Origin: Macrostomum lignano
Taxonomy: Eukaryota
DNA length: 64,000 nt
Assembly: GCA_002269645.1 (NCBI GenBank)
Contig: NIVC01000012.1
Coordinates: 930,001 to 994,000, forward strand
Reading direction: 5' to 3'
Part shown: piece by piece, positions 3,523-33,722 of the stretch
How the letters are laid out: the number at the start of each line of letters is the position of its first letter
Position numbering within the stretch: position 1 is the first letter of the stretch
Notes under the pieces: model-generated
Told to the model about the DNA's origin: nothing
Database searches by the model: none
Seen by the model: the letters and a program-made list of their open reading frames with translations, nothing else
Translations under genes and position numbers: made by a program

Positions 3523-3614
3523 GTTGCTGCTGCTGTTGCTGAGAGTGGGTCTCGCACCCTGAGCGCCTCCTTATATACCCTTGGGGCGGAGGGTGGGGTG
3601 GCTGGGCGTTTTTG

Positions 3615-4464: not shown

Positions 4465-4490
4465 TTTGATGTTGTTGAGAAATACCAAAT

Positions 4491-5240
4491 TTATTTATTT
4501 TCTAGGCTGCCGTCTGAACAGATTTTCAACCATTCCCTTCACTGTAGGACAGTTCTCTCAATTGATAAAAGTAAATACGCCGCTAGGAGCCCCCAGTTGC
4601 CGCTGCGCGCTTCGTAAAGACAGTTAAGATATGTGTCTCTATTAGCATACGCAAATTATACGGGTTCTGGCAGAATCCGCTTGAGCAACTTTGATAATAA
4701 CAGCCTAGTAGTTCTACCATTGCCGTCGCTAAAGGGGTGGGTGGTGAGAAACTTTTCTAGGAAATATGCTCCTGTCACTACTGCATCTTGCAGGAATTGT
4801 GGCTCGTTTATGTCTCTAGTTAATTTTACCAGCTGCCGTTCGATATTTTCTGGAGCGCTGTAATACATACTCGCACCTGCTGGCTTGGCGTGCTTAATTC
4901 TATACGATCCCGCATTTGAAAGCAGTCCTCCGCACACGCATGTGTGAACTTGTCTAACCAACTCTGTGTCAATTAACCCCCTCGTGTCATTGAGGTGTTT
5001 TGCCGCACTCCATAGATTGGCTGTGACCATACAGGACCCGGTTTTTATCGCTTCTTCTGCTTCCCCCCTCGTTAACGATGCTTCTCTCCTCAATGTTTAC
5101 TTCAGTTACGAATGCCAGCCGGGCCAGACTAGATGTGTGAATTCTAAGCGCTCCTTCGCGGTCAATCCCCCCATTCTTTTCCTAGTGTCTGATAACAATC
5201 TTTCAATGAGGGGTATTCTGTCGCGCACACTCGTTGCTGA
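4491..5240 (-). pseudogene. Fic/Fido-domain protein (AMPylase-type)
   Basis: Canonical motif HPFSDGNGRTTR. N-terminal FVTEVNIE..SLTRGEAEEAI resembles the SNxIEG..LT motif. Reading past the TAA at 4656 gives the typical C-terminal helix RDTYLNCLYEARSGNWGLLAAYL. Frameshifts near 5095-5130. Confidence 0.85.
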
Positions 5241-5619
5241 AATGTACGGCTCTCTCCGTGTGTGACTTACACACTCCCTCTCTGTCCCGCGCCTTCTGCT
5301 ACAGGGGCCGCTCTCTGTCTGCCACTCTTCGCGGGGTGTTACTCATACTACCTCTGTGTCCACGCCGAGTGCTGCGACATGCCAGGGCGGCTTCCTCTGT
5401 CGCAACACGTGCCTCCTCGCACTCTCTGTCCCAACGCACCCCTCACCCCTCCGACAGGGCTGCTCTCAGCCCTCCACATCCTGCTACAGGGGGCTGCTCT
5501 CTGTACAGGGCTGCGTCAGCATCGGGGGGGGGGGTTAAAAAACCCCTTCCTACACCCCCTACCGTATAGTGGCTAACCTTGGTGACATTGGTGGGAGGGG
5601 CGGGATTCCTCCTGCCGGA

Positions 5620-5800
5620 TGTACACTCGCCGGAGGCCCACCCCGTTGAAGGTACACTCGCTGGGGGCCCACCCTGCTGGAGGTACACTCGCTGGAGGCC
5701 CAGCCTGCTGGAGGTACATCCGCTGGAGGCCCACCCCGCTGGAGGTACACCCGCTGGAGGCCCACCCGCTGGAGGTACACCCCGGGGGAGGTGGTACACC
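5620..5800. repeat. GC-rich minisatellite, ~22-25 bp unit (gaggtacactcgctggaggcccacc)
   Basis: About 7 imperfect tandem copies visible. Confidence 0.85.
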
Positions 5801-7114
5801 CCGAAGGAGCACCTTGCCGCGGTGCTAGAGGCCGACATCAGCCCGACGGACCTTCGCGAAAACCCCAGATACGAAGTTGTATAGTCGTGATATCTGATGG
5901 AATGAGGTGACAGCTTTTTATGAATATGAGTTCTTGCAGTGAGTAGTATGTTTAGTTAATTAACTTATAAAGTCCTCAAATACTTGAAAGTCCTCAGATT
6001 CAGATTAGACATAAACCAACCAAACTGAGGCCGGTCGCTTTATGCACCCTGAAAAATAAAATGCATGTCTGAAACACCGGAAAATCCGTGGATTTGCCGC
6101 AGCTCTTTAATTGTACGCTCGTACGTTGTAAGCAGCTATTATCTGAGGCTATTTTTAGCCACCGCGTGTATGTACGTGCGAACTCAGCCATGAAGCCGTC
6201 TCCCCGGGGTTCTCTTAATTCTTCCCTCCCCAGATTTTAAACAAGAAAAATTCTCGAGTTACTACTGTTCAGGCTACCAGAGTAATAACCGAAGATTTAA
6301 ATTCACAAATGGAGATTCTATTCCTCATTAGCCGTTTGTATTTTTTTATTTCGTTATTAAATAATTTGCCACAGATTATATTTGAAAATATGGAAAGATT
6401 ATCGGTTATCGGCCTGCGCATTAAATTTTTAATGATAGACAGAAGCAGAGAAGCAAACAGTAGGGAGAAGCCTAAATTGCTGTCTTCTGATGCATGCAGT
6501 AACAGTCGCATGTCCTGAAACAACATTTGGAGCAACAGAAATTGATAAGAAGGCTGCCAATCAGTGAAGTAACTTGTGCTCGTTTTATAATTTTATCTGA
6601 GCTCAATCAAGGCTGATAACTGTAGCTCAATCTGTTGCAGTACCTGAGCTTTTCATGCTAATTAAGAGTTTCATGTGCATGTGATGTGTGCCAGTGTATC
6701 ACAGCTGTCCTGTAGCGGCTCATGTGTTAATCACATTTTTAAAAATCAATAAGTTGCTCTTTAAACTTTGTTTACCTGTGCCCAAGTAGATTAATTGATT
6801 CGATTCAGTTGAGCCCTGGGGTTTTCAGGCGATGGGAGTCGAGTTCACTGCTGCAGTATTATGGATTTTACTGCAACATCAACAGAATTAATAACTGAAT
6901 ATAATATGTATAACAAGTCAATATTTGAAGCAAATCACTGACATCTCATCTCATTTCATCTGTACAAATGTTTCAGTGTGAGTCACATTGATTTACACAC
7001 TGAGATGCAGCTGCCATCGCTCAGCCATCAGGTTGCGAAGGCGTCTCTGAAAAGCCGGAGAAAGAATTTCAGCATGCAGTCAGGGCTGTCAGGCCCCACT
7101 ACTAATGTTTAAGC

Positions 7115-8065
7115 ATCTTGAGTAAAGAAATCTTTAGCATAGCAAATATTCTTTGTCCTGTTTCTGTGAGTGACAGTTGCTAAAATCTATAGAAATAAAT
7201 CATTTGTTTGCTCTTCTTAAGCATCCGGAAATATATAATTAGGTAACTATTTTAATTTACTTGAATTTAACGGACTAAAATATAATACGCCAAAAGAAGT
7301 AATCAGTTTTCAATTCTCAGTCACTGATTGACAAACCGATCACATCCAGAAAAAAAGCCGGGTAATTTTAAGTGTTGCTATGTATTGTAAGTAGAGAAAA
7401 AAGCAGTCAGGCATCCTTAGTTAAATCACAATAGTCAACAGTAGTGAGTCTTCCCGACTCCTTCTCACGGAAGAGGAATCGGTACCAGCCAGCACCTAGG
7501 GCTTGTACAGCCAGGGCGTATTCGCTGTCGGAAGCTGTAACATTCTCGGGGTACATGTACCCTGGAGGTGGCCGCGCAAACACCCAGTTTTCGAACGCTG
7601 CAATGAGAGAAGACGCAGGCCATTACTACCCGATCAGCTTGTTAATAAACAAAAAGCGCAATATTTGCTTACCATCTCTCACGTAACGCATTTGTATGCA
7701 GCACAATAGTGTTGGAAGAAATTGTTTCTTGCCCATGGTTTTAGCAAACTTGTAATCCAACTCGACTTCCTGTCATCACAGATACTCCATCTGTTGCAAC
7801 GCCCCATAGTCATTGCTAAACAACTGTCGCAATACTATCTTGAGTAAATAAATCTTTTAGCGTAGCAAATATGCTTTGTCCTGTTTCTGTGACTGAAAGT
7901 TGCTTAAATCTATAGAAATAAATTATTGGTTTGCTCTTCTTAAACATCCGGAAATATATCATTAGGTAACTATTTGAAATTACTTAAAATTAACGGACTA
8001 AAATATAATACGCCAAAGGAAATAATCAGTTTTCAATTCTCAGTCACTGATTGACAAACCGATGA
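7115..8065. repeat. Diverged direct repeat of ~230 bp (about 7115-7345 and 7835-8065)
   Basis: Shared tcttgagtaaa..agcaaatat..tttgtcctgtttctgtga..catccggaaatatat..cagtcactgattgacaaaccgat in both copies. Confidence 0.9.
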
Positions 8066-8279
8066 CATTCGGAAAAAAAGAGGATCATGACATACCAGCC
8101 TCCGCCAGCGGCTACATCATCATCATCATAATAACGCTTAGCAACGTCAGGCGCCAAAGAAATACTGAAGCAAGTCCGAAACGATTGAAGAAGAAAAAGC
8201 GCACCCGAAAGGCAACTGGTGGAAATCGAAATAATAGGTCGAGCAATGCTGATCTGCTCAATTATTTTATTTTATTTGC

Positions 8280-9372
8280 TGCCGCCTTGTCAGACTGGAT
8301 GGGTGTTTGCTGAGGGAGGATGTTCGAGACGGAGATGGCATCATCACCGAGCGCAGAGACAGTGATGTGCACCCAGAAAGTTTTGTTCTGTCTACAGCCT
8401 TCTCAGATGTAATTGTGAGCATTAACCAGCGAGTGGTTTCTGGTGGAGACCAGCTATATCCCTACCATGCGTACTTCAAAGCACTAATGTGTTCATCTGA
8501 TGCCCAGCAGCTAAAACTTTACCCTGCTGGCTTTCTGGAGCTGGACTCTGCAGGGAATCCTGGTGGATGGAGTATGTGGGGCCACTCTTCAGCGATGTTT
8601 TCCAGTGTCCAGTGTTTCTGCTAAACAATCTGCACCTTCACATCAAACTGGTGCCCAGCAATGGGGCCTTTGCCATCAGAAGCCTGAATGCAAACAATGT
8701 GGCATATCAAATGGAAATCTCTCACTGCATTCTGCATCTTCGCCGATTCAAAGTGGTGCCCCACATCAGCCTGGCCCATGAGCAGGGATTGACAAACCAA
8801 AATGCACTTTGGAACTAAAATGCATTGAAATGCAGACCTTCGTCCTACCCCAGGGTATCCAGTCTAAAAACATTGAAGGATTCACCTAGGGAAAATTGTC
8901 GAAGTTGGCCTTCATGCTGGCCTTCGTGAGCCACCGAGCATTCAACGGCCATCATCATCATCATTATCGTCATCATCACGCGAGCCCGTTCCAGTTCCAG
9001 AGCTTCAAACTCAGCCGGTTGACTCTAAAGAAAGGTGGAGAAACCGTGTGCCACGGCGCCTTCACACCTGAAAACAATTCCTTCGTAAGAGAATACTTAC
9101 ACTACCTGAAAAACTGTCAATCTGCAAGCTCCACAAATTCGGTCCCGTGGATCCCCTACCAGCTCTTCTCCAACAACAACACGGTGTTTGCATTCGATCT
9201 CACACCCGACGGAGCGGCTCTGTGGTACGGACAGAAGGAGGGCAACCTGCGGCTGGAGATTCGCTTCCAACAGGCTCTGAATGAAGCGGTGTCTCTGATT
9301 GTTATGTGCCTGTATGACTCTCTGATTGAGGTCACCAAGCACCGGGAGCTTTTCCTGGACTATTCCTCTTAA
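8280..9372 (+). pseudogene. Polinton major capsid protein (double jelly-roll, PY), N-truncated and frameshifted
   Basis: STAFSDVIVSINQRVVS..LYPYHAYFKALM; GPLFSDVFQ..LLNNLHLHIKL..AHEQGL; TVFAFDLTPD..KEGNLRLEIRFQQAL..DSLIEVTKHRELFLDY. These match Maverick MCP motifs. Confidence 0.92.
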
Positions 9373-9377
9373 CTGGC

Positions 9378-9920
9378 ATGGACGCAATTCAACTATTTAA
9401 TCTCGCCAGAAAATTTTTGCCTAACCAAAATTTCTCATAGTTACTTTACATTTGTGCTATAAAAATTCTCTGCCCTTGAATGTAAAAAGAAAATTTCGAT
9501 CATCAATTTCCCTTGAAAACAAGTTTGTATTTGTCCTACGTCAGAACAATGGCTCATTTGGTCACTGGGTGGTATGCTATGTTGGGCAAGGAAATTCCAT
9601 TGAGTTGTTGAACTCCCTCGGCTGGGAACCTGAAATTTTATCTTTGGTTTATAATTTGCTTCGAGAGATTAAAACAAATTGCTTTTGGCTCCGAAGCAAT
9701 ATAAACAGAGTTCAATGTGCTAACTCTAATAAATGCGGAATGTTTTGCATCTATTTTGCTTACGAAAAGTTGCTGTTCAATCGTTCATTTGAGGGGATTT
9801 TGAAGAGTTTGCATGCTAATGAAAAAATCATTTAAATGATTGAATTTTACAGATGTTTGAAGCCAACTTCAGAAAAAGATGTCCGTGATTTTCTAGAACT
9901 ATATTTATGCATTAGACAGG
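9378..9920 (+). pseudogene. Adenain/Ulp1-type virion maturation cysteine protease
   Basis: GHWVVCY (His), IELLNSLG (D/NS-x-G), RVQCANSNKCGMFCIYF (Gln, Cys nucleophile); N-terminal part disrupted. Confidence 0.88.
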
Positions 9921-9929
9921 AAGAAAATC

Positions 9930-10563
9930 CAGTTTGCTACGATATCCGCCTCAGGCAGGGAAGCTGTGTGATTGTCTTTGGAGCCACCAATGCAGGGAAA
10001 ACAACCTTTGTCAAACACCTGATCCAGTACGGAGACGTCATGTTTGATGTGAAGCCTGGCAGAGTTCTGTGGTACTATGGGATCTCACGTACAGGCCATG
10101 CAGAGCTGAGCAGCCTATGTGTGCAGCTGCACCAGGGATTTCCCACCAACATCGAGACAGCCCTTAAGCCCAATGACCTGGTTGTTTTCCATGATATAAT
10201 AGAGGAAACTTAAATTCTGCTTCAATGCGATTTTTTTTCACAGGAATCGCACATCACTTGCCGTGCTTTTTGGTGATGCTGACTTAGAATATATTTTTCA
10301 AGGGAAAAGAGTCGCGAACAATGAGCTTGAATGTAATGTATTTAGCTATCTTGAAAAACCCCAGAGACCAACTGCAGATTGCAGCACTGGGCAGACAGTG
10401 CTTTACAGAGAAGCCCGGCTTTCTGCTGTCAGTGTTCAAGCACGTGACCGCGCAGAACAGGGGAGCCTACCTGTTCCTAGACTTTCACCCATCAACTCCC
10501 GATGAGCTGCGAGTGCGGGCCAGAATTCTGCCTAACCAGCGACCCCATCTTGTATTTGCTTAA
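9930..10563 (+). pseudogene. A32-like DNA packaging ATPase
   Basis: Walker A VFGATNAGKTTFV, Walker B-like LVVFHDI, then SLNVMYLAILKNPRDQLQI..AYLFLDFHPSTPDELRVRARILP. Stop and frameshifts at about 10210-10320. Confidence 0.92.
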
Positions 10564-10589
10564 GAAAGTGAAGCTTGTTTTTTATCAGC

Positions 10590-11155
10590 TATTCAATCAA
10601 TATTTGAAGTACAGGTTTGTTGGTCCAAAAGTCGAGAAGCAAAGTTCAGGGACGGAATGATAGCAATATAGTTAGAGAAGTATATAATGTACATCCAGTG
10701 CCCCCTCCCTCAGAACACACGGAGAACATGTCCCGCGCCACTGTGTTGGAGTTGAATGTTGAGGTTGGGGGAATGCGCTTTAATGTACAGCGCTTCAAGT
10801 ATCTGGAGTTTGGAGTCAAAAGAACCTTGTTAAATGACTTTAAAGCGCTCTTCGGATTTTGCAGTTAGAGCAACTATTACACTCTAAGAGATGGTTTTGG
10901 ATAGCCGACGGTTTCAGCCAGTGCTCCCTGATTCTACTATGCAGGTGCCTTTTTGTCTTCCCCACGTAGGAGACGCTCTGGTCATCAGAGCAGTTAAACT
11001 GATAAACGACACCAGCACGAAGAGCTATCAGCTATTTTTTTCATCGCTATGGAAGTGTTTGATTCACATACAAGTCTTTACGTCACCAATATACCGTGCG
11101 CTTCAAGCGGCTGTTGATAAAAAATTGTCCAAAAGAAGTGCGTTATTTTCTTTTT
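10590..11155 (-). mobile_element. Penelope-like retroelement 3' fragment (GIY-YIG endonuclease)
   Basis: Minus-strand GVVYQFNCSDDQSVSYVGKTKRHLHSRIREH..IQNHLLECNSC..LQILEALYIKAHSPNLNIQ; absent from the ORF track because of frameshifts. Confidence 0.88.
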
Positions 11156-11345
11156 GAGGCCTGTCATCATCTCTTACAAAACGATTGATCGTTTTCGCTC
11201 GATGAAAAAGCTGTTCTTGCAAAGTCAAAAGAGATAATTCGAAAAATTACTCAGCAGAGAAGAAAGATAGACTTGTTGAAGGCTGGCTGGCTTCATCAAA
11301 ATACTCCCGATTCTTTTTAAGCTGGTAAAGAAGAAGAGCAAGATG
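11153..11345 (+). pseudogene. Maverick PW-like small basic protein, C-terminal half
   Basis: FEACHHLLQND*SFSLDEKAVLAKSKEIIRKI..DLLK/AGFIKILPILFKL resembles the ExxxNLL..LxxxKxxIRxL..GGFLxxLLP pattern of the small Maverick core-like protein. Confidence 0.55.
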
Positions 11346-12034
11346 AATAAATTTTCAGAAATGGTTCTGATTCCTAAGGCAGAGTATGAGATGTTGATGC
11401 AGAATTTTAAGCCGAATGAGAATAGCACTGAAGCTGACTTGAAGCAGGCTCAGAAGAATGCGATGATATCTTGTATGCCGAGGACTGCCCAGAAGATGTG
11501 AAAACCTCCATATATCAAAGTGCAATGCAAAGTTTGCTGGCCAAGCGCAAGCACGCTGGAAAAGAAGGAGCACGCAATACTGAAGCCAAGTTGATGAAAA
11601 CAGAGACACCACAGATGAGCACATGGGAAGAGAAGATCAGCAAGTCGGTGCCACAGAATTTCAAAACCAGGACTCGTAGTCTATGGACGATCCTGTCCAC
11701 CAATCCAGAGCTGATTCGAGTTTGTGAAAACAGGGAGGTGGAAATCACAGGCACTTCAATCCCTTCCTCAAACATACTGGACTTGATTTAGCATGCAGTG
11801 AGGGATTCGCCATGTGAGCGTGAACCAGTTGGCTGGAACGACTTAATAGATTTGCTGCAGCAGAAAAAGCTTAATGTTCCGCTTTTAGCTGTTGGTAAAT
11901 CAGTTAAAAAGAAAATGGCAAACAACAGAGGGGGTAAACTGGAGAAAGAACAGGCGAGTCTAGTCAAGGGGTACGGGAGCAACACAGCCTGGCTGAAACT
12001 GCCTGGAAGAAAAGTATATAAGAAGGCGGACTGA
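11344..12034 (+). pseudogene. Conserved Maverick hypothetical protein
   Basis: MNKFSEMVLIPKAEY..KTSIYQSAMQ..SVPQNFKTRTRSLW..IPSSNILDLI*..EPVGWNDLIDLL..LNVP; a motif set typical of a conserved Polinton ORF. Stop at 11789. Confidence 0.65.
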
Positions 12035-12062
12035 CTCTGATATTTCGAGGGAAAGCTGCATC

Positions 12063-12790
12063 ATGAACTACATTGACTTCCAAGGATTCCCGTGCAACAG
12101 CACAAGTAAAAAATTTGTTCTGAAAGAGCTGGCAGTTGTTCAGGTCAGAGCAGGAAGCTACCGTATTGCTTACCATGTGTACGCACCTCCGTATCCATGG
12201 GAGAGAGTCTCTCCTGACATGCGAGTTTTCTACAGACAGCTATCAAAGAATCTTTGTATATATTGTAAGACCGTGGGTTGAATTGCAGTGAATAACAAAA
12301 CATGAGGAGACCTCACTGGCTCACGCCAAAATATTTAATGCCAAAGTTGAGGTGGGTGTAACCACCCTAAGCACGCACACGCTGCAGCGCTAAACCCCAA
12401 CCCCCAAACCAGCCAGACGTGCACAGACGTGCATGAGTAGCACAGACAAAAAGAGATCTAGCTAGACTGCGCGGACGTAAAGGCGCAAAGGACGCAAAGA
12501 ATCTGCACCAGTTTAAGTGGGATGATGGAACCCGTCCGTACATGGAACTGGCGGAAGACATTCTGAGCATTGCCAGTAGTCCGATATGGACAAATGGGGA
12601 AAGGAAGTCGATTTTCCTGACTGAGCTGCTTGGTAGAAAGGTTTATAACCTAGAAGATTTGGGAGCACCCTCGATTGAAGATTCAGATACTGGCTGTGCA
12701 GTGAGAAATTCATTGCTGCACTACAGTTGGCTTAAGCCAAAGTTCTGCATGAACTTAAGAAGCGAGCAGTGTCCGTGGCACAGGGGCAGT
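12063..12790 (+). pseudogene. DEDD/DnaQ-like exonuclease of the Polinton-associated type, split by an insertion
   Basis: YIDFQGF..FVLKELA..HVYAPPYPW. Removing the insert restores QLSKNLHQFKWDDGTRPY..IWTNGERKSIFLTELLGRKVYNLEDLGAP. Confidence 0.75.
12254..12494 (-). mobile_element. 241-bp retroposed insert (SINE or 5'-truncated LINE end) with 10-bp TSD CAAAGAATCT
   Basis: TSD at 12244-12253 and 12495-12504; A-rich 3' end (tacaatatatacaa) on the minus strand; excision restores the exonuclease frame. Confidence 0.85.
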
Positions 12791-12830
12791 GAATTTGGCA
12801 GAAGGTTTGGTGAAGAAGTCAAGGATCGAA

Positions 12831-13093
12831 ATGAGTCCACCTGCAGCTACAGCCCTAAGAGTGACCAATCTGGTTGGCGGAGTAGATCTGAGACTGTATG
12901 GTGGCAGGGGCGCCCTGCTGCCTCTACGGGAACTGGCTCTCAGCATGGCTCATGTGATCTACCGGCCCGTCTGGCCCCGGGTGCTCATCAAGCGGATGCG
13001 GAGTCCCAGAGTGACTCTGCTACTCTACCCTACTGGACAACTGAGCATCTGTGGCGCTAAGACCCACACACACGCCAAAAGGGCGCCAAAAGG
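12831..13093 (+). pseudogene. TATA-binding protein (TBP)-like, first repeat only, truncated by a LINE
   Basis: LRVTNLVGGVDL..LPLRELALSMAHVIYRPVWPRVLIKRMRSPRVTLLLYPTGQLSICGAKTHTHAKRA aligns by eye to TBP repeat 1 ([58 protein letters not shown]). Confidence 0.85.
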
Positions 13094-16000
13094 TGCACCG
13101 GTAACATCGCGGCCATTGCCAGCGCCAGCTGGACCACCCTTGGCGACATCGGCAGCGACCACCTTCCGATCCTGTTCAGCATTGACCGCCCGGGCCCCAG
13201 CGAGTGTCGACGAGGCGCCGCAAAGTGGAGCTACAAGAAGGCCGACTGGGCCCAGTTCCAAGAACACCTGACCGTGGCCGACAAGCGTCTCAAACTCAGC
13301 AACCGGTTTACCTGCGACGCCGACCACGACCGCCTCTGCAGGGCCATCCTGGAAGCCGCCTCGGCGAACATCCCCCGTGGCGCTCGGAACCGGCCTTGCA
13401 AGCCGTTCTGGACGGACGCCTGCCAACACGCCTGCGACGAACGCAACCGTGCGCGACGCAACGCTGAGCAGAGCAAATCCGAGCACGACATCAACGCCTT
13501 CCACCGCGCCCGCAAGACCGCGGCCGACACCATCAACTTCGCCAAACAACAGCACTGGCAACAAAAGATCGGCGAACTCAACCTCAACAGCGACCTCCTT
13601 GCCCTCGCCCGCTCGCTTCGAAGAGAGCCGCCGCCTCCCCCCGCCAACGCGGCCCTGAGCACCCCTGCCAAACCTGGATCCCGCCAGCGAACGGCTACCA
13701 CCCCGAGCGAAAAGGCCTATCTCTTCTGCAGCCTCTACGCCGAAGTTTCTCGCAATCACCGACGCAAGGAGGACCGCTCCATTGCCCGGCTCGCCCACAA
13801 GGCGATGAAACAGATCTGCTGCTCTGGCAATCAGAAATCCGGCCTTTGCAGCCCGTTCAGCGGCAGCGAACTGCAGAGTGCACTGCGCGCGCTCAAATCT
13901 GGGAAAAGCCCCGGCGCAGATGGTGTCAGCAACGAGATGCTGAAACACCTCCCGCCGTGCACTGAAAGCCGCCTCCTCGACCTCATCAACAAGTCGTGGC
14001 TCTCCGGTTGCTGCCCGCACCAGTGGAAACGGCCATAATCATCCCAATCCCCAAGCGCGGCAAACCGGCTTCTGACCCGAGCAGCTACAAGCTCATCGCT
14101 CTCACCAGCTGCATCGCCAAGGTCGCCGAAAGACTTGTCCAGAAGCGCCTCAGGCACCACCTTGAACAGCACGGCTGCCTCAGCAACGTCCAGGCCGGTT
14201 TCCGCAGCGGTCGGTCGTGTGAAGAACAGATTGCGCGCATCACGCAGGACATTTTCGACGGCCTTGAAGAGCTTCCACCCCAGCGCAGCGCCCTGGGGGT
14301 CTACGACATGTCCCGTGCCTATGACAAGGTCTGGAGGAAGGGTAACATCTACAAGCTCAGCCTGAAATGCATTACACCCTGCGCACTCCGCTGGACGAAC
14401 AGCTTCATCAGCGACCGCCGAGCCCGCGTCCGTGTCAACAACTGCCTATCTCGCGAGCGCATTTTCAAAGAGGGCTTGCCACAAGGCTCTGTCCTGGCTC
14501 CCCTCCTCTGGCTGGTCTACATTGACGACCTGGCAAGCGACATCCTCCAAGCCTCACCGCGAGCCAAAGTCAGCCTCTACGCCGACGACAGCGCCATCCT
14601 CCCCACGGCGCCCAGTCTGAAGGACTGCGAAGCCATCCTCCAGCCTGCGAACGAGGCTCTGGCCACCTGGTGCGAGAACTGGCACATGGAACTCAGTACC
14701 AGCAAATGCAGCTACACCACCTTCTCCCTGAGCCCAAACGAGACGCGAGGGAAGATTCCGCTCCAACTGACCCTAAAAGGCGAACCTCTGCAATTCGACC
14801 CTAACCCGACCTTCCTCGGCATCAAACTAGATGACCAGCTCACCTTCACCAAGCACGCAAAAGAAGTCTGTAGACGCATGGCGGCCCGCCGTCGCCCCCT
14901 CCAAGCGATCGCCCACCGGTTAAGTGGCGCCACGCAGGACATCCTCCGCACGGTGTACACCGCCACCATCCGCGCAATCGCCGACTATGGCAGCGGCATC
15001 TGGATGTGCGGATCAGCACCCAGCACCCGTCTAGCGGTTGGACGCCAACAAAATGCCTGCGCCCGCCTCATCACTGGATGTATCCGCCCCACCGATGCCA
15101 AGGAGCTGCTGTCTACCGCCGGACTCCCACCTATCAGCCACGTCGCTGTCGAACGCGCGTGTAATCTCCGAGAACGCCTCCTGCGCCTCCCGGAGGGCAC
15201 CCCGGCTCGCGAAACTGCCGAACGTGTCACCCGACCGCGCCTCAAGAACCGCAGTTACGAAGCCCTGCAGCGCCAAACCCGAAACAGCCCGGGCGCCACG
15301 CCCGCCGTCAACCAACCTGGCTGCCAGAAAGACGCCCTCCGCCCGCACCGTGGCTGCTGGCGCCGCGCCGCCCTCGAGCTTGAGTGCGCCGCCGCCCTGG
15401 ACCAGTTCCCACGCGCCCCGCCGCCTCTCGGCGCGAGCCCTGGAGAACCACCGGCGCCAGCGACATCATCTTCGACCTCCGAGCCAGCCTCCGGACCCAC
15501 CGCGACATGCCGCCAGACATCAGAGCCCACCACGCGACCGACATCATCGCGACTCTCTGCGAGTCCAACACGGTCTGGACCGACGGTTCCGTGACGGAAG
15601 GCTTCAAGAACGGTGGCGGGGCCGCCGTCATTGTGCGCGACGAGAACAACAACGTCGAACTTCGGGCCGCCGCAGGCGCCCTCTGCAGCAGTTACACCGC
15701 CGAACTCGTTGCCATCCAGGAGGCGCTCAAATACCTGCAAGCCGACCGCGCCGCCGAGCCCCACTGGATCGCCACCGACAGCCTCAGCGCCCTCACCGCC
15801 CTGCTCGCCGGTCCCATCGACCAGACCGATCCGACCGCAGCAGCGTGCTGGGACTCGATCATGAGCCTGAAAGCCGACGGTCGCCCCCCCCTCCTTTGCC
15901 TGGGTCCCCGCACATTGCGGAATCGCCGGCAACGAGGCGGCGGATCAGGCGGCTTCCCGAGCCGCCCAGCTAGAGCAACGTCACGTCGAGCTTCCACTCA

Positions 16001-16400
16001 GCGCCACCAAAGCCGCCGCCCGGCGCAGCCGCGGGTCCCTCGATCTTGCGGTCGTGTGCGCCTTCAAGCAGCCACCCGCCACCATGACCCGGCAGCGCCA
16101 AGTCCTCCTCAATCAGCTGCGAGCCGGAGCCAGCACCATCAACAACAGCTCGCTCCATCAGATGGGCCTCACCGAGACAGCCAACTGCCCTGACTGCGGC
16201 GAACTCGACACGGTCAGGCACATCCTGCTCGCCTGTCCTCGCGGTGACCGGTACCGCGCCCTGCACGGCATCCGCGCGGCCGAGGACTTGTTGGAGTCCC
16301 CGATCGCCCTTTTCGGCCTCCTGCGTAGCATGGGGCGCATGCCCCCGTCCATTTCGGCTAACCCCGACCCGGACGAGCCCTGAAGAAGAAGAAGAAGAAG
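13094..16400 (+). mobile_element. 5'-truncated I-group (Ingi/Nimb-like) LINE: APE end, RT, RNase H, Cys/His knuckle, (GAA)n tail
   Basis: GSDHLPILF and WSYKKADW (APE end); KSPGADG, QAGFR, LPQGSVLAP, YADD, FLGI (RT); WTDGS..AELVAI..TDS..WVPAHCGIAGNEAAD (RNase H); CPDCGELDTVRHILLAC; stop at 16383 then (GAA)6. Frameshifts near 14035, 15450 and 15905. Confidence 0.95.
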
Positions 16401-16896
16401 CATCTTCCAAGTCATCCGTCTTCACTACCGGCTTGGTCTCTTCCGCGTCTTCATTTTCGATGTTGTCGGAGGAAGATCCCGACTCCAGCTCGTATACATC
16501 AGACATCTCACGTGGAGCCGATAGCTGCTCATCGATCCAATCCGCGTACTGCCACAGCTTTAGCCACAGCGGCGGTGTCAGCGGCACGGTGTTCCGCTTA
16601 AGAAACTCGTCGCAGCAATCATCCGGCAGTCGCTTCAGCCAGATAATGCCGTTCTTCACCTCGATTAACTTATCGAAGCCGAGTTTGACAACCTTTGGCT
16701 GATTGTCCAAGGCCGCCTTGACAAGCGATCGCTTCAACTCCTTGGGTTTCTCCCACTGACAGATGTTCAAATTGAAGCCGGGGACTCTAGGTTTCAAACT
16801 CGCGGTGCTGCCATGTCGGTAAAATTTTCTGATAGCAATGAACTTAACTCCTTCATACTCCTGTATTTGGAGTTTATATCCTTCGCCGATGTCCAT
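16401..16896 (-). pseudogene. PC4/Sub1 (p15)-domain protein, probably two PC4-like units, C-terminus cut by the LINE tail
   Basis: MDIGEGYKLQIQEYEGVKFIAIRKFY..PRVPGFNLNICQWEK, then KLGFDKLIEV..VPLTPPLWLKL..IDEQL, then an acidic tail. The ORF-track extension into 15970-16400 is antisense LINE sequence. Confidence 0.85.
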
Positions 16897-16967
16897 GACT
16901 AACTTAAACAGAATGAACTATCTCGTTGAAAAAAATCGATTTTTCATGACTCAATAACATTTTTTGG

Positions 16968-16980
16968 CCCTTATATAGCC
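16968..16980 (-). promoter_or_regulatory. TATA box TATATAAGG upstream of the PC4-like gene
   Basis: ggcTATATAAGGgcc about 75 nt upstream of the ATG; the same 9-mer lies about 50 nt upstream of the ATG at 3522. Confidence 0.55.
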
Positions 16981-17144
16981 TTAACCATTGCAGCTAACAT
17001 ACAGCAATAGAAAAACATAGGCCTATGTACTCTCACTGGAGGTCTCACGGAATTTCCATGGCCTGCCTGCGGCAGAGTCGCTCAATGGATTTACATAGGC
17101 CCGTATGTTCACTGACTAGGATCCATGGCTTTTCCACGGAAATT

Positions 17145-17479
17145 AGTAGTAGGCAAAAGTACGCTTCTAGACCCAGAGCACCTATTAAACACAGCATTTG
17201 GGCGTCTAGAGGGGGCGGTCAAGTTAATAACACAAACACATTTTGATGATTTTGTGGATTGGGATGTTGGTGTTGTTGGGTGTTTTTTATACCTCCATTT
17301 CGCCGAAATTGAAAAAGGTGGGAGGGGTAAAATGGCCTATTTGAGTGGATATTGGGTGTGATAAGTGCTTTTAGTGCTTTTTGGTGTTTTTTTATTTTCC
17401 CCCGACCGCCCCCTCTAGACGCCTAAATGCTGTTTTTAATACGTGCTCTGGGTCTAGAAGCGTACTTTTGCCTACTACT
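17145..17479. mobile_element. 335-bp non-autonomous mini-Polinton (MITE-like) with 76-bp TIRs and 6-bp TSD
   Basis: Begins AGTAGTAGGCAAAAG and ends CTTTTGCCTACTACT; TIRs 17145-17220 and 17404-17479 with 3 mismatches; GAAATT at 17139-17144 and 17480-17485. Confidence 0.85.
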
Positions 17480-18179
17480 GAAATTCCTGCGGCAGAGTTC
17501 TGTTATCCCATACTACTAAAAGGATTGAAGTAAAGATTTGAGTAGAAACTACCATTGGCGATTCACTAAAATGAAATTAAAATCTAAGACAGGCACCAAA
17601 TTTCAATCACTGATGAAAAAACATTCCTTAAAGTGTCTTCAAGTATGTATGATTGTTTCTCTGGGCATTTTTAGTACAAAATCACTTCCCAGAAGCGCTA
17701 TGTAAATCGTAAAATCAATAGAAGGCAATAAGCTGTATAAAGCCTGAAAAATACAATCTTTAATTAATCTGAACCTATTAATGTTTATTAAGAAAGTTGG
17801 ATCACTCGGATGAAGGAACGAGGTCACTACCCAGTGTAAAAATCGGCATCGAACGGTAACCGATTTTTAGGTGCCCCTACGTACACCTTATGTCCGAGCC
17901 AAACTGTATCCGTTGGATGCCGATGTCGGACCCAAACGGACACGAATCGGAGGGTAAAAAGTGAGGAAAAATTATTTTAACACTACTATAAGTAGGCAAA
18001 TAAAAATATTAAAAAACTCCTTGCAAAGTCATGAAATGGAAAAACTTATTTTACGTATTTAAATTGCCACTTTTAATTTTTATTCAAAAATCATATAGAT
18101 GAAGTTCTACGTCTGATATGCATGCTGTTCTACAGTAGTTAAAAAGCAATAAAACACAAATACAAGTCAATTAGTCAAA

Positions 18180-24064: not shown

Positions 24065-24120
24065 CTAACCCTAACCCTAGCCTAACCCTAACCCTAACCC
24101 TAACCCTAACCTAACCCTAA
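24065..24120. repeat. Interstitial telomere-like (CCCTAA)n tract, ~9 units
   Basis: ctaaccctaaccctagcctaaccctaaccctaaccctaaccctaacctaaccctaa; degenerate copy at about 24495-24540. Confidence 0.9.
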
Positions 24121-24983
24121 AGCATTGAAATTTCAGTAATTCTCTCTAAGAGTCATTATAGCACTACTACAGCATTATAGCGATTCCCTGCAAGCCTCAA
24201 CATCGTAGGGATTCCCAAATGAATCTCTTAACTTCGACATGAAGCTTATTTTATTTTTTACATTACGCTTTTTTATCAGCGATCCCTCCCCTGAGGAGGC
24301 ATCAAATAATGTAATAAAAAGTTTTCAATAAACTACATGTAGCTTCTGACTTTAGCCTTGAAATCTCATTTATACCCCCGTGAGCCTTGACATCTCAGCT
24401 ATTCCCCCGTAAGCCTTGACATGTCAGCAATGGCCCCCATAAACCTTGAAATCTAAAAAATCCCCTGTTAACCTTGAAACCCGATAAAATATAACCCTCA
24501 ACCCACACCTGACCTAAACCTAACTTTAACCCAACCTAAAGCCTTGAAATCTCAGCAATTCTTCTCCCCTAAGCCTTGACATTTTAGTGATTCCTTCTTT
24601 AAGAATAACAGCACTATAACGATTTCCACCAAGCTTTGACATCGTAGCAATTCCCAAATGAATCTTTCAACTTCGACATGACTTTTCTTTTATGTATACA
24701 TAGTGCTACTTTTATTTTTTACATGACTCTTCTTCTATCAGCGCCCCCCCCCCGTGACATGAACTTTGAAGTAGCTTCTGACTTTTGCTTTGACATCTCA
24801 GAAACCCCCCCCCCCCGTAATCTCAGTTATTCTCTGAGAGCCTTTACGTCTCAGTTTTTCTCCCCAGCACAGCATTATAATTGCATTTAATTTTTACATG
24901 AACCCTTCATGTCTGACATGACGTTTTTTTATTCTACCGTGACGCTTCTTAATTTTTTAAATGACACTTTCATTAGTTTTTAA

Positions 24984-27412
24984 ATGAGGCTTCTATGATT
25001 TTTTCTTGACGCTTCTATGATTTTTACATGACGCTTCTATGATTTTTATATGACGCTTCTATGATTGTTTACATGACGCTTCTATGATTGTTTACATGAC
25101 GCTTCTATGATTGTTTACATGACGCTTCTACGATTTTTTACATGACACTTCTATGATTGTTTACATGACGCTTCTATGATATTTTACATGGCGCTTCTAT
25201 GATTGTTTACATGACGCTTCTATGATTGTTTACATGACGCTTCTATGATTGTTTACATGACGCTTCTACGATTTTTATATGACGCTTCTATGATTTTTTA
25301 AATGGCGCTTCAATGATTTTTTAATGACGCTTCTATGATTTTTTACATGACGCTTCTATGATTTTTTACATGACGCTTCTATGATTGTTTACATGACGCT
25401 TCTATGATTGTTTACATGACGCTTCTATGATTGTTTACATGACGCTTCTATGATTGTTTACATGACGCTTCTATGATTGTTTACATGACGCTTCTATGAT
25501 TTTTTGAATGACGCTTCTATGATTTTTATATGACGCTTCTATGATTTTTTACATGACGCTTCTACGATTTTTATATGACGCTTCTATGATTTTTTAAATG
25601 ACGCTTTTATGATTTTTTAAATGACGCTTCTATTATTTTTTAATGACGCTTCTATGATTGTTTAAATGACGCTTCTATGATTTTTTACATGACTCTTCTA
25701 TGATTTTTTAAATGACGCTTCTATTATTTTTTAATGACGCTTCTATGATTGTTTAAATGACGCTTCTATGATTGTTTACATGACGCTTCTATGATTGTTT
25801 ACATGACGCTTTTATGATTGTTTACATGACGCTTCTATGATTGTTTACATGACGCTTCTATGATTGTTTACATGACGCTTCTAAGATTTTTTACATGACG
25901 CTTCTACGATTTTTTACATGACGCTTCTATGATTGTTTACATGACGCTTCTATGATTTTTTGAATGACGCTTCTATGATTTTTATATGACGCTTCTATGA
26001 TTTTTTACATGACGCTTCTATGATTGTTTACATGACGCTTCTATGATTGTTTACATGACGCTTCTATGATTTTTTGAATGACGCTTCTATGATTTTTATA
26101 TGACGCTTCTATGATTTTTTACATGACGCTTCTACGATTTTTATATGACGCTTCTATGATTTTTTAAATGACGCTTTTATGATTTTTTAAATGACGCTTC
26201 TATTATTTTTTAATGACGCTTCTATGATTGTTTAAATGACGCTTCTATGATTGTTTACATGACGCTTCTATGATTGTTTACATGACGCTTCTATGATTGT
26301 TTACATGACGCTTCTATGATTGTTTACATGACGCTTCTATGATTGTTTACATGACGCTTCTATGATTGTTTACATGACGCTTCTATGATTGTTTACATGA
26401 CGCTTCTATAATTGTTTACATGACGCTTCTATGATTGTTTACATGACGCTTCTATGATTTTTTACATGACGCTTCTATGATTTTTTACATGACACTTCTA
26501 TGATTGTTTACATGACGCTTCTATGATTTTTTACATGACTCTTCTATGATTTTTTAAATGACGCTTCTATTATTTTTTAATGACGCTTCTATGATTGTTT
26601 AAATGACGCTTCTATGATTGTTTACATGACGCTTCTATGATTGTTTACATGACGCTTTTATGATTGTTTACATGACGCTTCTATGATTGTTTACATGACG
26701 CTTCTATGATTGTTTACATGACGCTTCTAAGATTTTTTACATGACGCTTCTACGATTTTTTACATGACGCTTCTATGATTGTTTACATGACGCTTCTATG
26801 ATTTTTTGAATGACGCTTCTATGATTTTTATATGACGCTTCTATGATTTTTTACATGACGCTTCTATGATTGTTTACATGACGCTTCTATGATTGTTTAC
26901 ATGACGCTTCTATGATTTTTTGAATGACGCTTCTATGATTTTTATATGACGCTTCTATGATTTTTTACATGACGCTTCTACGATTTTTATATGACGCTTC
27001 TATGATTTTTTAAATGACGCTTTTATGATTTTTTAAATGACGCTTCTATTATTTTTTAATGACGCTTCTATGATTGTTTAAATGACGCTTCTATGATTGT
27101 TTACATGACGCTTCTATGATTTTTTACATGACGCTTCTATGATTGTTTGCATGACGCTTCTATGATTTTTTAAATGACGCTTCTATGATTTTTATATGAC
27201 GCTTCTATGATTTTTCACATGACGCTTCTATGATTGTTTACATGACGCTTCTACGATTTTTTAAATGACGCATCTATGATTTTTATATGACGCTTCTATG
27301 ATTTTTTAAATGACGCTTCTATGATTGTTTACATGACGCTTCTATGATTTTTTTACATGACGCTTCTATGATTTTGTAAATGACGCTTCTATGATTTTTA
27401 CATGACGCTTCT
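24984..27412. repeat. 20-21 bp minisatellite (acatgacgcttctatgattgttt), >100 copies, with higher-order blocks
   Basis: Direct inspection; a variant series containing ctctt/cttcta-ag recurs, for example near 25680-26200 and 26530-27050. Confidence 0.98.
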
Positions 27413-28159
27413 TTTTAAAAAGTCTTTTAGTTTTCCTGACGTTGAAAAGCTTTAATTAAAAAAATTATACTCTATGAAAATTCGAACCATCGTCGCTGCA
27501 TTTAGCAGTTCAGTCTGTTTACCTCTAGGCTAGCTCTCATCGTTTTGATAACATCAAAATTTGCACTTATATAATTCAACACTTGAAAATCCAAGCATAG
27601 AGTAAATCACACGAAGCAGTTATGACATAATCAGTTTCTCAGTCAGTCAGTATCAGTTAACAATATGGTTACGCAATTTAAATCAAGTCTGGTGCTACGC
27701 TTCCACACTGCATTTTCAATTCAAGTCGGAGTTACAATTCAGTTATGATGCAATCTATTTCAGAGTCAGAATTCAACCAGTCAGTTTTTTCTCTAGCATT
27801 CTTACAATGCATTTCAAGTCGAAAAGTTTGCTTGACCTTTGCAAAAAAGCATGTTTTTCGAATATTTAATGCCTTTAGCATCGAGCAATTTCTTAGCCAC
27901 GATGCATGTACAGTCACGGGAAAATTTCTGATCGAACAGTGCAAGTTCGAACAAAATCGGTCCAGCCATTTTTTCTCTAATCGATCACATAGACACAGAC
28001 AGACCATTTTTAGTATATAGGACTAGCAATCTTTGCCCCCCGATGGGGGCATCTGGATAGAATCCTTGTTTTTTACAAATAACAAATAGACAGCGAAATA
28101 AAGCCTTCAGAAAAAACAACAGACATTCCCTCTTAAAAACAAAACATCCCAAGACAGCA

Positions 28160-28830
28160 AGCATCCTCAGACAACATTCAAGCATTGATCCCCAAATAGC
28201 AAGCATCCCCCAGACTGCAAGCATCCCCCAGATAGCAAGCATCCCCAGATAGCAAGCATCCCCCAGACTGCAAGCATCCCCCCGATAGCAAGCATTCCCC
28301 CAGACCCCAGATAGCAAGCATCCCCCAGATAGCAAGCATCCCGCAGATAGCAAGCATCCCCCAGATAGCAAGCATTCCTCAGATAGCAAGCATCCCCCAG
28401 ATCGCAAGCATCCCCAGATAGCAAGCATTCCCCCAGACCCCAGATAGCAAGCGTCCCCCAGATGGCAAGCATCCCCAGATAGCAAGCATCCCCCAGACTG
28501 CAAGCATCCCCCGATAGCAAGCATTCCCCCAGACCCCAGATAGCAAGCATCCCCCAGATAGCAAGCATCCCGCAGATAGCAAGCATCCCCCAGATAGCAA
28601 GCATTCCTCAGATAGCAAGCATCCCCCAGATCGCAAGCATCCCCAGATAGCAAGCATTCCCCCAGACCCCAGATAGCAAGCGTCCCCCAGATAGCAAGCA
28701 TCCCGCAGATAGCAAGCATCCCCCAGATAGCAAGCATCCCGCAGATAGCAAGCATCCCCTAGATAGCAAGCATCCCCCCCCAGATAGCAAGCATCCCCCA
28801 GACAGCAAGCAACCCCTGATAGCAAGCATA
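28160..28830. repeat. 18-19 bp minisatellite (gatagcaagcatccccca)
   Basis: Direct inspection; reverse-complement copy at about 54700-55150. Confidence 0.97.
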
Positions 28831-29359
28831 ACCTGGATACAAAGAGACCTTATAGATATCTAGCAACCCCCTCTCAGATAGCAAGTACTCTCCACCCCCA
28901 AGAGCAAGCATCCCCCAGATAGCAAGTATCCATCCTTAAATAGCAAGCATCCACCAGAGAACAAGTAGCTAGTGCAACAATTTCCTTAGCTTTATAATGG
29001 TTTCATTTTGTTTGGCATGACACTTCTTTTATGTTTGAAATGGTGTCTCTTTTTTGTTTAAAAAAGTGGCTTTTTAATGTTTGACATGGTAGCTCTTTTG
29101 TGTTTGACATGATAGCTCTTTAATGTTGGACGTGGTGGCCCTTTTGTGTTTGACATGGTAGCTCTTTAATGTTTGACATGGTGGCTCTTCTATGTTTGCC
29201 ATGGCGGCCCTTTTACGTTTGAAATGGTGTCTCTGTTATGTTTGACATGGTGGCTTAGTTGTTTGACATGGTGGCTCTTCTATGTTTGACATGGTGGCTC
29301 TTCTATGTTTGACATGGCGGCCCTTTTACATTTGAAATTGTGTCTTTTTATATTGGGCA

Positions 29360-32209
29360 CAAGCTGTTGAAACCCGCGGATTTTGAACCCGGGGAATTTC
29401 AATCCCTGGAACTATTTTGCATGTACTCATATTCTAAAATCTGAGGTCAAACTCAAACAAAAACTCGTTAATAGTTAGGTAAGAATTAAACATAAAATAG
29501 AGTACATTCGTAAAAAATTAGGATTTGAGGCAAACATTTATATTGTTGGCTGGGGTGCTCCGAACAGGCAAACTCTGGCCTCTGCCTCTCCTTATGTCCC
29601 TTGGATCCTTAGAAACTTTGACCTTCTCTTCTGTTTCCTCTCCTCTCTCTCGTCTCTGTCTCTTCTCTCTCTCTCCTCTATCCCCTATTCTCTCGTCTAT
29701 TCTCTCTCCCTTCTATTCTTTTATCCCTCCTCTCTACTCTCTCCTCTCTCTCCTCTCATCTCTTCTCTTCTTTCCTCTCTCCTCTCTCCTCTCTTCTATC
29801 GTCTCTTCCCTCACCTCTCTTCTCTCTCGTCTTTGCTCTCTTATCTATCTCTTCTTTCTCTTCTTTTATCTTTTCTCTCTTCTCTTTTCTCATTCTTTCT
29901 GCATGTTCTCTCCTCTCTCTTTCCCTCTCTCTCTCCTCTCTCTCTCCTCTTATCTCTCTGCTCTCTCCTGTCCCATATCTCTTTCTCCTCTAATCTCTCC
30001 CCTGTTTCATCTCCTCTCTCGTCCTTTCTACTCTTTCCCCTGTCCTCTCGTTTCTCTCCCCTCCCCTCCTCTCTCCTCACTCACTTCTCTCTCCCTTTGT
30101 CTTACCTCTCATCTCTTATTTCTATCCTTTTTTCTCTCCACTCTCCCATCTCTCGTCTGTTCACTCTCGTCTCTGGTCTCTCATCTCCCCTCTCTCATCT
30201 GCCATCTTTACTCTCTTATACTCGTATGTTTTCTCACCTCTCTCATCTGTACTCTTCTTTTCCCCTCTTTTGACTCCTCTCTTTCCTTCTCCTTTTTCCC
30301 TTCTCTTCTCTTCCCTCTTCTATTCTCTCCCTCTCTTGTCTTCTCTCTTCTCTCTTCGCTCTCCTCTCTCCTCTCATATATCGCGTTCACTCTCATCTTT
30401 GCTCTCTACCCCCTCTCTCTTCTGTCATCTTTACTCTCCACTCTCCTGTGTACTCTTCTCTTTCCCCTCTACTGAATCCTCTCTTCTTACTCCTCTTCTC
30501 TTCCCTCTTCTATACTCTTCTCTTGTCTCTTTGCACTCTGCTCTCTCTTCCTTCATCTCTCATCTCTACTCTCTCGTCTCCACAATCTCATCTCTTTCCT
30601 CTCTCCTCTTCTTCCCTTTACTCTATCATCTCTCCTTTCTCCTCTCTTCTTTCTCAACTCTCTCTCTCTCTCATCTCTTATCTCCTCTCTTCTCACTCCT
30701 CTCTCCCTCTCTCTCCCTCCTATCTCCTCTCTGTTCTCTATTCTCTTCTCACTCTTCTCTACTCTCCTCTCTCATCGATCCTCTGTCTCATCTCTCCCCT
30801 CTTCTCTCTTCCTCTTCTCACCTCTACTCTTTCCTCTCCCTCCTGTCTCCCCTCCTCTCGCTTCCTCCTCCCATATTCTCTGCTCTCTCCTCGTCCTCAC
30901 CCCACTCGTCTTTCCTGTTATCTTATATCTTTTCTCTTACCCCCTCTCACCCTTCCTCTCTTTCTAATAGTCTATTCCTTTTCTTTTTTACTCTCATCTG
31001 GCCCGCAGCCATGAGCTGGATTCTTTATCTGGCCTTTGAGTTAAAAATCTACCGATCCCTGCTTTGAAAGCCAGTTTGTGGGACGTCGTACTATCATGGT
31101 TATCATTTCTTATGCTTTAAACACGTCACCTTTCTGGCCAATTAGCAGCCCTGAGAGGAATTTGTGTATCTCCAGCTCCACCACCACAGTCTGCACTCTG
31201 CAGCAGTCTAACAACCAAGGAAATGCGCATTTCTTAGGAGTCATTTAAATTTTAAAGTTACTCTATGCGAAAATTAATGTTAAAAGCTTCATGGTGTAAC
31301 TAATTTAGTAGGATTGCATTGTAATAAGTTATTCATTAATTTTTCGCTATTTTTATAAACCATCCCACATCGCCTTGATTTGCCATCCTTGTTTAACTGC
31401 TGCGACTTGTCTATACAGAGGACAGTAGTTTGAATCTCTCGCTAAACTTTCTCCTCTCCACGCCTCTCCACTCGCGGGGGTACAGAGACGGCTATTAAAA
31501 AGTTATTCCAAAACACTGTACATTTGCTATGTACATTCAGTCCTATCGCCTGACCCTTCGTCTGGCTCTGGGGGAATGAGTGAGTGAGTGGCACAAACAA
31601 CAGAAAAAGCAGACAAACTTCACATGCTTACAGTTTCTTTTTCGGTTGAGTTACAGAGTTGAAACTTTACATTTAGATAGAGAATGAGTCAATGAAGAAT
31701 TGTGTCAAGTTTGAAGTCAATCGCTTTACGTGGAGCAAACTTATGGCAGCTGAAAGTTAGTCAATTTTGAAACCCTTATACACATCTGGGCCCAGATCAG
31801 GATCGGGAAAGAGAGGCAGGCGGGCGGAGGTTGGGGTGGTTGCTACGCTGAAAAAAACAGCCTAACTTTAAAAGTGCACAGCACCGCTCAGGATTAACTT
31901 TGAGACTCGAAATTTTACACAATTGTGCCAAAATAGTTGAAAATTGCCTGTGTCAAATTTGAAGAGAATCGGTAGAAGTGGAACGGCGCTATGGAGGATT
32001 AAGTGAAAAAATCGCGCATTTTGAGCAGTTTTTTGTACTTTTAGGTAGGAAGACTCAAATTTAGGAAATTAAAAGGTAGCCTAAGACATTCTCCGTAGTA
32101 AGTTTAGGGTGGGTGTAAAGTTTGGTGTAATTTGGTTGAGCGGTTTGGGAGTCCATAGCGAAGTAATTTGTCCACAGACAGACAGAGTTTTGATTTTTAT
32201 AGGTAGAGA
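29360..32209 (-). mobile_element. Nested non-autonomous Helitron D (5' TC, 3' CTTG), inserted at A|T without TSD
   Basis: 5' A|TCTCTACCTATAAAAATCAAAACTCTGTCTGTCTG; 3' imperfect hairpin + cagCTTG|T. Flanks gagccatta and tgcccaata are contiguous at the paralogous empty site 54011/54012. Confidence 0.87.
29620..31000. repeat. CT-rich (polypyrimidine) low-complexity tract
   Basis: About 1.4 kb of degenerate (ctct)n; the ORFs over it are compositional artefacts. Confidence 0.95.
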
Positions 32210-32224
32210 TAATGGCTCAATAAT

Positions 32225-33670: not shown

Positions 33671-33722
33671 CTTTTATGTTTAGCATTTTGTGTTTTAAAG
33701 TGTTTTAATAAAAAAATGTTTT

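Follow-up and report, generated by a model that had tools for sequence, protein, structure and literature searches.

The window that we analyzed is a 64,000-nucleotide stretch of Macrostomum lignano DNA (G000:C12:930001-994000). Positions 17145-17479 of the window hold a 335-bp unit that starts with AGTAGT and ends with ACTACT. It is flanked by a 6-bp target site duplication (TSD): GAAATT is present on the plus strand at 17139-17144 and is repeated exactly at 17480-17485 (the entire insert locus is G000:C12:947139-947485). A 6-bp match between the flanks is expected by chance with p of about 1/3800. The two arms of the unit are complementary over 76 bp apart from mismatches at positions 38, 46, and 56 (96% identity by blastn, E = 1e-30). 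When folded as DNA, the unit forms a 76-bp stem with a loop (z = -19), and none of 100 shuffled sequences equaled this. The first-pass annotation had described the 335-bp length, the 76-bp terminal inverted repeats (TIRs), the AGTAGT termini, and the exact GAAATT duplication, and we confirm all of these. No open reading frame (ORF) of at least 100 amino acids overlaps 17145-17479. The unit is a piece derived from a Polinton and is not itself a Polinton: it encodes neither the DNA polymerase (pPolB) nor the integrase.

The unit was correctly reported to lie in the terminal region of a larger Polinton; this host belongs to a different family (family B) with an unrelated TIR. The host's right end (16411-17517, plus strand) is 89% identical to young copies and has a TIR of about 135 bp with the tip ACTACT at 17512-17517. 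The unit interrupts this end 33-38 bp from the tip (17517). The interior of the host (8249-13057, plus strand) is decayed, with 68-78% identity to young copies in its genes; profile matches identify a protease (Peptidase_C5, 9425-9835) and, weakly, an ATPase (9836-10213). This block of genes is inverted relative to the right end, and the remnant of a non-LTR retrotransposon (reverse transcriptase and RNase H; 13061-16190, plus strand) lies within the host at the junction. We did not find the left end of the host in positions 1-17000 of the window or in the preceding 10 kb. Because the family B TIR and the unit have only the AGTAGT tip in common, the unit is not derived from its host.

To see what the site looks like without the unit, we compared it to paralogous host TIRs. 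In all 11 of these (the best non-self matches that were fetched), the site is empty: the hexamer is present once, as GAAATT in 10 cases and as GATATT in 1, and the sequence after it continues directly to the host tip. Thus, the duplication is real. In public sequencing runs, the joint of the empty site reaches a depth of 119-461, which reflects the host paralogues. Positions 17152-17472 are found unchanged, as a 321-bp contig, in runs X1, X7, and X8, which are from three studies (the assembly may have been built from one of them), so the unit is not an invention of the assembly. The contig depths of the unit and of its unique right flank were 31.5 and 42.2 in X1, 51.4 and 41.1 in X7, and 8.6 and 10.9 in X8. 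These ratios of 0.75-1.25 indicate a single copy in each of the three studies. Among the contigs listed, none spans a junction of the unit by our 31-letter rule; the best one has 37 plus 30 letters across the right junction. Coverage over the unit is absent in another run, X3, which is too shallow to be read as an empty allele.

The arms of the unit match the ends of a family of 15- to 25-kb Polintons in the same genome (family A). A pattern for the outer end of family A matches at 171 places (control, 0). The elements have (AGT)2//(ACT)2 termini and long TIRs: the TIR pairs are 281-374 bp (about 280-375 bp) in 6 of 7 cases, the exception being C1500, with arms of 7.4 kb. The TSD is 6 bp in 19 of the 22 end pairs examined (the misses are C632, C2221, and C904; the count leaves out the rearranged C87 cluster as a probable allele of C2121). 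PolB motifs and an rve integrase are found in both the 17.5-kb C441 and the 17.8-kb C1429, with the integrases just under the Pfam cut-off (E = 4e-7 and 2e-7); the C441 integrase also has an IS481-type DDE match (E = 4e-12). In C441, the polymerase ORF, which carries PolB motifs, is 1324 amino acids long. This ORF has an Atlas score of 0.98 to clusters with DNA_pol_B_2 (27% of members) and Endonuclease_7 (25%); searched directly, it matches only Endonuclease_7 in Pfam and has no match in PDB. C441 also has matches to an A32-type ATPase (Pox_A32, E = 1e-6) and a protein X domain (E = 1e-4). The candidate capsid and protease ORFs of family A had no profile match. Given the protein-primed PolB (pPolB) and the rve integrase, along with the end motif and 6-bp TSD known from Polintons (excerpts of PMC8097293), family A is a Polinton family.

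A few family A loci have unusual structures. At G000:C1064:81618, a family A end lies directly within the polymerase gene of another family A copy, which is a nested Polinton insertion. G000:C87:100793-155730 and C2121:130681-139635 appear to be one locus, with flanks that are reverse complements; the former is a rearranged version of 55 kb in which four ends are present and the latter a version of 8.9 kb, due either to an allelic difference or to an assembly problem. G000:C1500:203854-219354 is a single-copy palindrome of 15.5 kb that spans the whole element, with 7.4-kb arms around a spacer of about 0.8 kb. Its tips are those of a family A Polinton (125 bp, about 89% identity), its TSD is TAAGTA (6 bp), and it lacks the inner arm described below. 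We found no integrase or polymerase in C1500. It contains two copies each of a 227-amino-acid ORF, with a weak Pfam match only, and of an ORF of roughly 1000 amino acids, which had no match in Pfam, NCBIfam, PHROG, or Atlas. C1500 is possibly a Polinton satellite.

Every family A end that we examined carries an inverted copy of its own tip 254-314 bp inward. The end is a hairpin unit of 254-314 bp that lies within the TIR and consists of an outer arm, an A/C-rich loop, and an inner, inverted arm. A pattern that includes both arms matches 168 units in the genome (control, 0), and 177 inner arms are tied to a GC-rich motif of the interior. All 33 of the other distinct units that we extracted continue into the Polinton interior, and the loop is A/C-rich over its whole length, on the strand that starts at the outer arm, in 33 of 33 units (A+C of 0.72-0.92). 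A typical family A TIR folds to the same long stem as the 335-bp unit (z = -14). In all subfamilies, the outer arms read TCTAGACCCAGAG and the inner arms read TCTAGATCAG (or ATCCG), a fixed ATC-for-CCC difference just after TCTAGA. The tips, and the other positions of the arms, co-vary between the two arms of one element. Inward of the inner arm there is a small GC-rich hairpin and then a third, degenerate tip-like stretch.

The outer and inner arms of family A evidently exchange sequence. At G000:C1307:52497-52765 and C3750:62471-62739, the inner arm is of the outer type over 54-55 bp and is still joined to the interior (C904 is the same locus as C1307, with 99.75% identity in the flank). Among 30 unconverted units that we extracted, 11 have arms that are identical over the first 27 bp. 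We also considered whether the loop might invert, as in the flip-flop of parvovirus or poxvirus hairpins: none of the 100 units listed, out of 168, has an inverted loop, which gives no hint of hairpin-primed flip-flop replication. The layout of an element can be written as A-x-a' ... a-x'-A'. Since the tip recurs in inverted form inside each TIR, the outer arm of either end and the inner arm of the opposite end are direct repeats of each other.

The inside of the 335-bp unit is collinear with just one such TIR. On the minus strand, it contains an outer arm, an outer-side stretch, a loop, an inner-side stretch, and a second arm. The right arm (17404-17479, 76 bp, minus strand) is the true outer end of a family A TIR and is followed inward by the outer-side stretch, GGGGGAAAAT-A-run. 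The closest relatives of the unit are C1113 and C859. In their TIRs, the outer side aligns with the stretch next to the right arm, and the inner side aligns, in the same orientation, with the stretch bordering the left arm (none of 300 shuffles reached the score in either comparison); the reverse orientation of the unit had no match to these two TIRs. The loop (17221-17403, 183 bp, minus strand) is collinear with the loop of a single family A TIR and is A/C-rich on the minus strand in both halves (A+C of 0.73 and 0.65). Its middle matches C1500: a motif with a small palindrome (17297-17318, minus strand) has just 3 matches in the genome (control, 0), namely this one and one at each end of C1500. 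In the alignment, the left arm (17145-17220, 76 bp, plus strand) has the outer-type tip TCTAGACCCAGAG and then sequence that in relatives adjoins the inner arm, and we read it as a hybrid of an outer and an inner arm. The 335-bp unit differs from a normal TIR unit in one respect only: the tip of the second arm is of the outer type, and beyond this arm comes the TSD instead of the interior. A MITE formed by internal deletion would have the outer-side stretch twice; since the unit has it at one arm only, it is not a left end joined to a right end. As these alignments show, the unit corresponds to one family A TIR hairpin unit with outer-type tips on both arms. A target preference for family B TIRs was considered and rejected, as neither C859 nor C1113 is flanked by sequence matching that TIR.

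The unit seems to be the only one of its kind. The next best full-length match has 68% identity (among the 40 of 200 candidates that were scored). Two outer-type arms 170-320 bases apart occur at three loci (the window, C1307, and C3750), and only the unit in the window is free: C1307 and C3750 are not further solo units, as they lack a TSD and are joined to the interior. A relaxed pattern matched 53 loci; the 50 of them that were listed comprise the window, C1307, and 48 matches to satellites or by chance. There were no free 269-bp copies of the two converted TIRs, including among these 50 of 53 loci. Nor did we find a free unit with an inner-type arm, using a pattern that misses mutated copies and TSDs starting with A; its 1 match is a mutated normal TIR. 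Other look-alikes were discarded: C1113, C859, C249, and C1157 are ends of longer elements, with inner arms that continue into the Polinton interior, and C349, C832, C1319, and C1530, whose units are not among the inner-arm matches listed, are attached ends. Derivatives beyond the 330-base gap of the pattern were checked among 100 of the 171 outer ends. No non-autonomous derivative at multiple loci emerged: C87 and C2121 share their flanks and are thus one rearranged locus, and C349, C1157, and C1500 were each seen once. The arm type of the unit, GGGGGCGGTC, is present at just 3 loci. Its two relatives have decayed, and the assembly thus retains no exact parent or helper. The end pattern had no match in viral_contigs. 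Overall, the unit is single-copy in the assembly (by the 40 of 200 candidates scored and by the pattern searches) as well as by depth.

How did the unit arise? The evidence points to a collapse between the direct-repeat arms, inside or outside the chromosome, and we consider this probable. On balance, we lean towards a solo TIR of a family A Polinton that collapsed after it had integrated, with no need for trans-mobilization. A full-length family A copy would have integrated into the TIR of the older family B Polinton, making the GAAATT duplication. The outer arm of its left end (A) and the inner arm of its right end (a) would be direct repeats of about 76-85 bp, and these would then have recombined inward of position 28, by crossover, single-strand annealing, or replication slippage. 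The whole interior would be lost, and a hybrid A/a arm, x', and A' would be left with the TSD intact; because A and a are direct repeats, such a collapse leaves exactly one hairpin unit. The 335-bp unit would then be a dead relic, corresponding in Polintons to the solo LTRs of retroviruses. This origin is consistent with the absence of amplification and with our finding no free copies of the two converted young TIRs. All three differences between the arms lie inward of position 37, as predicted for a hybrid, but this has a 13% probability by chance, and the one at position 38 seems to be a change private to the outer arm. Since the assembly lacks the exact parent subfamily, and the closest TIR has 68% identity (among the 40 of 200 candidates scored), the crossover cannot be mapped. 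Several points count against a solo TIR. The arms are short and imperfect, which makes them a poor recombination substrate over about 17 kb; there is only one case; and the short contigs of four runs showed no full-length parental allele at the insert site.

These results bear on the rest of the first-pass annotation. Its proposal of a Polinton origin is supported, since the arms are the tips of a full-length family with 6-bp TSDs, pPolB, and rve. It had counted against this proposal a unit that was single-copy and had no autonomous Polinton with the same TIR: the unit is single-copy, but autonomous partners nevertheless exist. Its further argument, that a non-coding unit that still integrated implies MITE-like trans-mobilization, does not follow, as the unit is single-copy and consists of one TIR hairpin unit and a collapse of an integrated full-length element would keep the TSD.

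Alternatively, the collapse might have occurred outside the chromosome, with a helper integrase then inserting the resulting 335-bp linear DNA, which would have had two working ends, in trans as a one-off event and creating the TSD. The source could be a template jump by the polymerase between the outer and inner arms or the excision of one converted TIR hairpin. We view this origin as possible but rather unlikely. It would yield the same final structure as a collapse after integration, and converted inner arms do exist. The 76-bp stem and loop of the unit resemble the panhandle in a model of Polinton excision and replication that has been restated for casposons (excerpts of PMC4046053), and the AGTAGT motif, which has been tied to protein priming (excerpts of PMC8097293), is kept in the inner arm. 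C1500 keeps this explanation alive because it has family A tips and a 6-bp TSD, with no integrase or polymerase found; DNA with such ends may have been integrated in trans. However, C1500 is itself single-copy and could have rearranged after integration. Also, a 335-mer that was competent for both replication and integration should amplify, yet the unit is single-copy, and the two converted young TIRs gave no free copies. We are similarly doubtful of the specific idea that the nested hairpin is a functional second end, so that conversion to the outer type would allow the panhandle to be copied and inserted in trans by the polymerase and integrase of family A.

It is improbable that the unit belongs to a true MITE-like family of Polintons whose other copies were lost, diverged, or are missing from the assembly. 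Like a MITE, it is short and non-coding and has TIRs, a TSD, and autonomous partners, and copies might escape genome searches that score part of the candidates (40 of 200) or patterns that need exact matches. But the contig depth is single-copy in three studies, the strict and relaxed patterns give no second free unit (with 50 of 53 relaxed loci listed), and the unit consists internally of a single TIR rather than two ends. Being single-copy in the assembly and by depth, the unit gives no support for a MITE family.

Many family A copies are located at contig breaks, which raises the issue of whether the assembly collapsed a full-length copy between its two arms. This is very improbable: the same 321-bp contig, with outer-type arms on both sides, was recovered from three runs of three studies at single-copy depth, and the join of the outer tip to the inner flank falls inside that contig. 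We give almost no weight to a non-autonomous cut-and-paste DDE element (Ginger, hAT, or Mutator) that merely resembles Polinton ends, for although the size and the long TIRs suit a MITE, the arms match the ends of 15- to 25-kb elements, of which those read in detail (C441 and C1429) encode pPolB and rve, and the 6-bp TSDs contradict it. The TSDs of hAT elements are 8 bp, and those of Mutator elements are 9-11 bp. Ginger elements have TGTNR termini and 4-bp TSDs (excerpts of PMC2836005), in contrast to the AGTAGT termini and 6-bp TSD of the unit. We looked for a link to these three groups and found none, and the partner TSDs are 6 bp.

TIRs and a perfect TSD on a tiny unit are not proof of trans-mobilization. 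Retroviruses and LTR retrotransposons leave solo LTRs, in which recombination between direct repeats leaves one terminal repeat within an intact TSD. The 335-bp unit is similar in that it has one terminal unit, no interior, and both halves of the TSD, and in that the ends of its parent contain direct repeats. In family A, unlike in LTR elements, direct repeats arise only because each inverted terminal repeat contains an inverted copy of the tip. These repeats are short and imperfect, and free units are rare (1, versus 171 outer ends). With such a copy nested inside its TIR, a TIR element could leave a scar like a solo LTR.

According to excerpts of the sources, Polintons/Mavericks (polintoviruses) have (AGT)2//(ACT)2 ends, 6-bp TSDs, and TIRs of 46-1447 bp (PMC8097293; 10.1101/2023.08.22.554363). 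Family A shares the end motif, the 6-bp TSD, pPolB, rve, a predicted A32-type ATPase, a size of about 17.5 kb, and the TIR range. It differs in that the tip is repeated, inverted, within the TIR, and the 335-bp unit differs in that it codes for nothing and is one TIR. Excerpts of other sources describe solo TIRs in casposons (PMC4779613) and Galileo (PMC3573991), pieces of Polintons in Caenorhabditis elegans that contain only the TIR (10.1101/2024.01.15.575659), and internal palindromes in some casposon TIRs (PMC4046053). These are similar to the unit in that a lone TIR is left from a TIR element. In the accessible parts of these sources, they are ascribed to degradation or are defined by a missing partner, and they are not described with two complete tips and both halves of the TSD (the supplements may show otherwise). 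Because it has these features, the 335-bp unit mimics an intact mini-element.

Kilobase-sized non-autonomous Polintons are reportedly listed in Repbase and by Kapitonov and Jurka in 2006. Non-autonomous Polintons are apparently absent in the anole (excerpts of PMC3014272), and Tlr1 elements have been viewed as non-autonomous Polintons (excerpts of PMC5499653). In the full texts that are searchable, a set that leaves out most subscription papers, Repbase, and supplements, we found no description of a Polinton MITE, of a nested inverted tip in Polinton TIRs, or of a TSD-flanked solo Polinton TIR. The accessible parts of PMC11296320, 10.1101/2025.02.07.637071, PMC6431247, 10.1101/2023.08.22.554363, and PMC8502044 contain nothing on these points.

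The mechanism of Polinton replication and integration is so far known mainly from models. A hairpin TIR at about 168 ends, with arms that co-vary and a fixed signature in the inner arm, points to unstudied cis-elements in these processes. If the unit is a solo TIR, then collapse would be a way for hosts to delete large proviral elements, with direct evidence at one locus. If it instead was inserted in trans, then it would be a natural minimal Polinton that sets the lower size limit of the cis-element needed to replicate and integrate. The ATCAG-for-CCCAG change conserved in the inner arm would in that case be a switch that normally prevents defective minigenomes.

The window also contains other features. 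Upstream of the genes of the host Polinton, an ORF with a Fic/DOC domain lies at 4659-5096 on the minus strand (E = 2e-13). There are two Helitron remnants in opposite orientations (40667-48811, plus strand, and 55382-60250, minus strand), with matches to Helitron_like_N and PIF1; an OTU domain adjoins the first of them. These remnants lie in inverted tandem arrays of 23-bp and 18-bp repeats (about 28000-33700 and 51400-55100). Finally, a short interstitial run of CTAACC, which is telomere-like, is present at 24065-24120, beside a 108-copy array of a 23-bp repeat (24940-27412).
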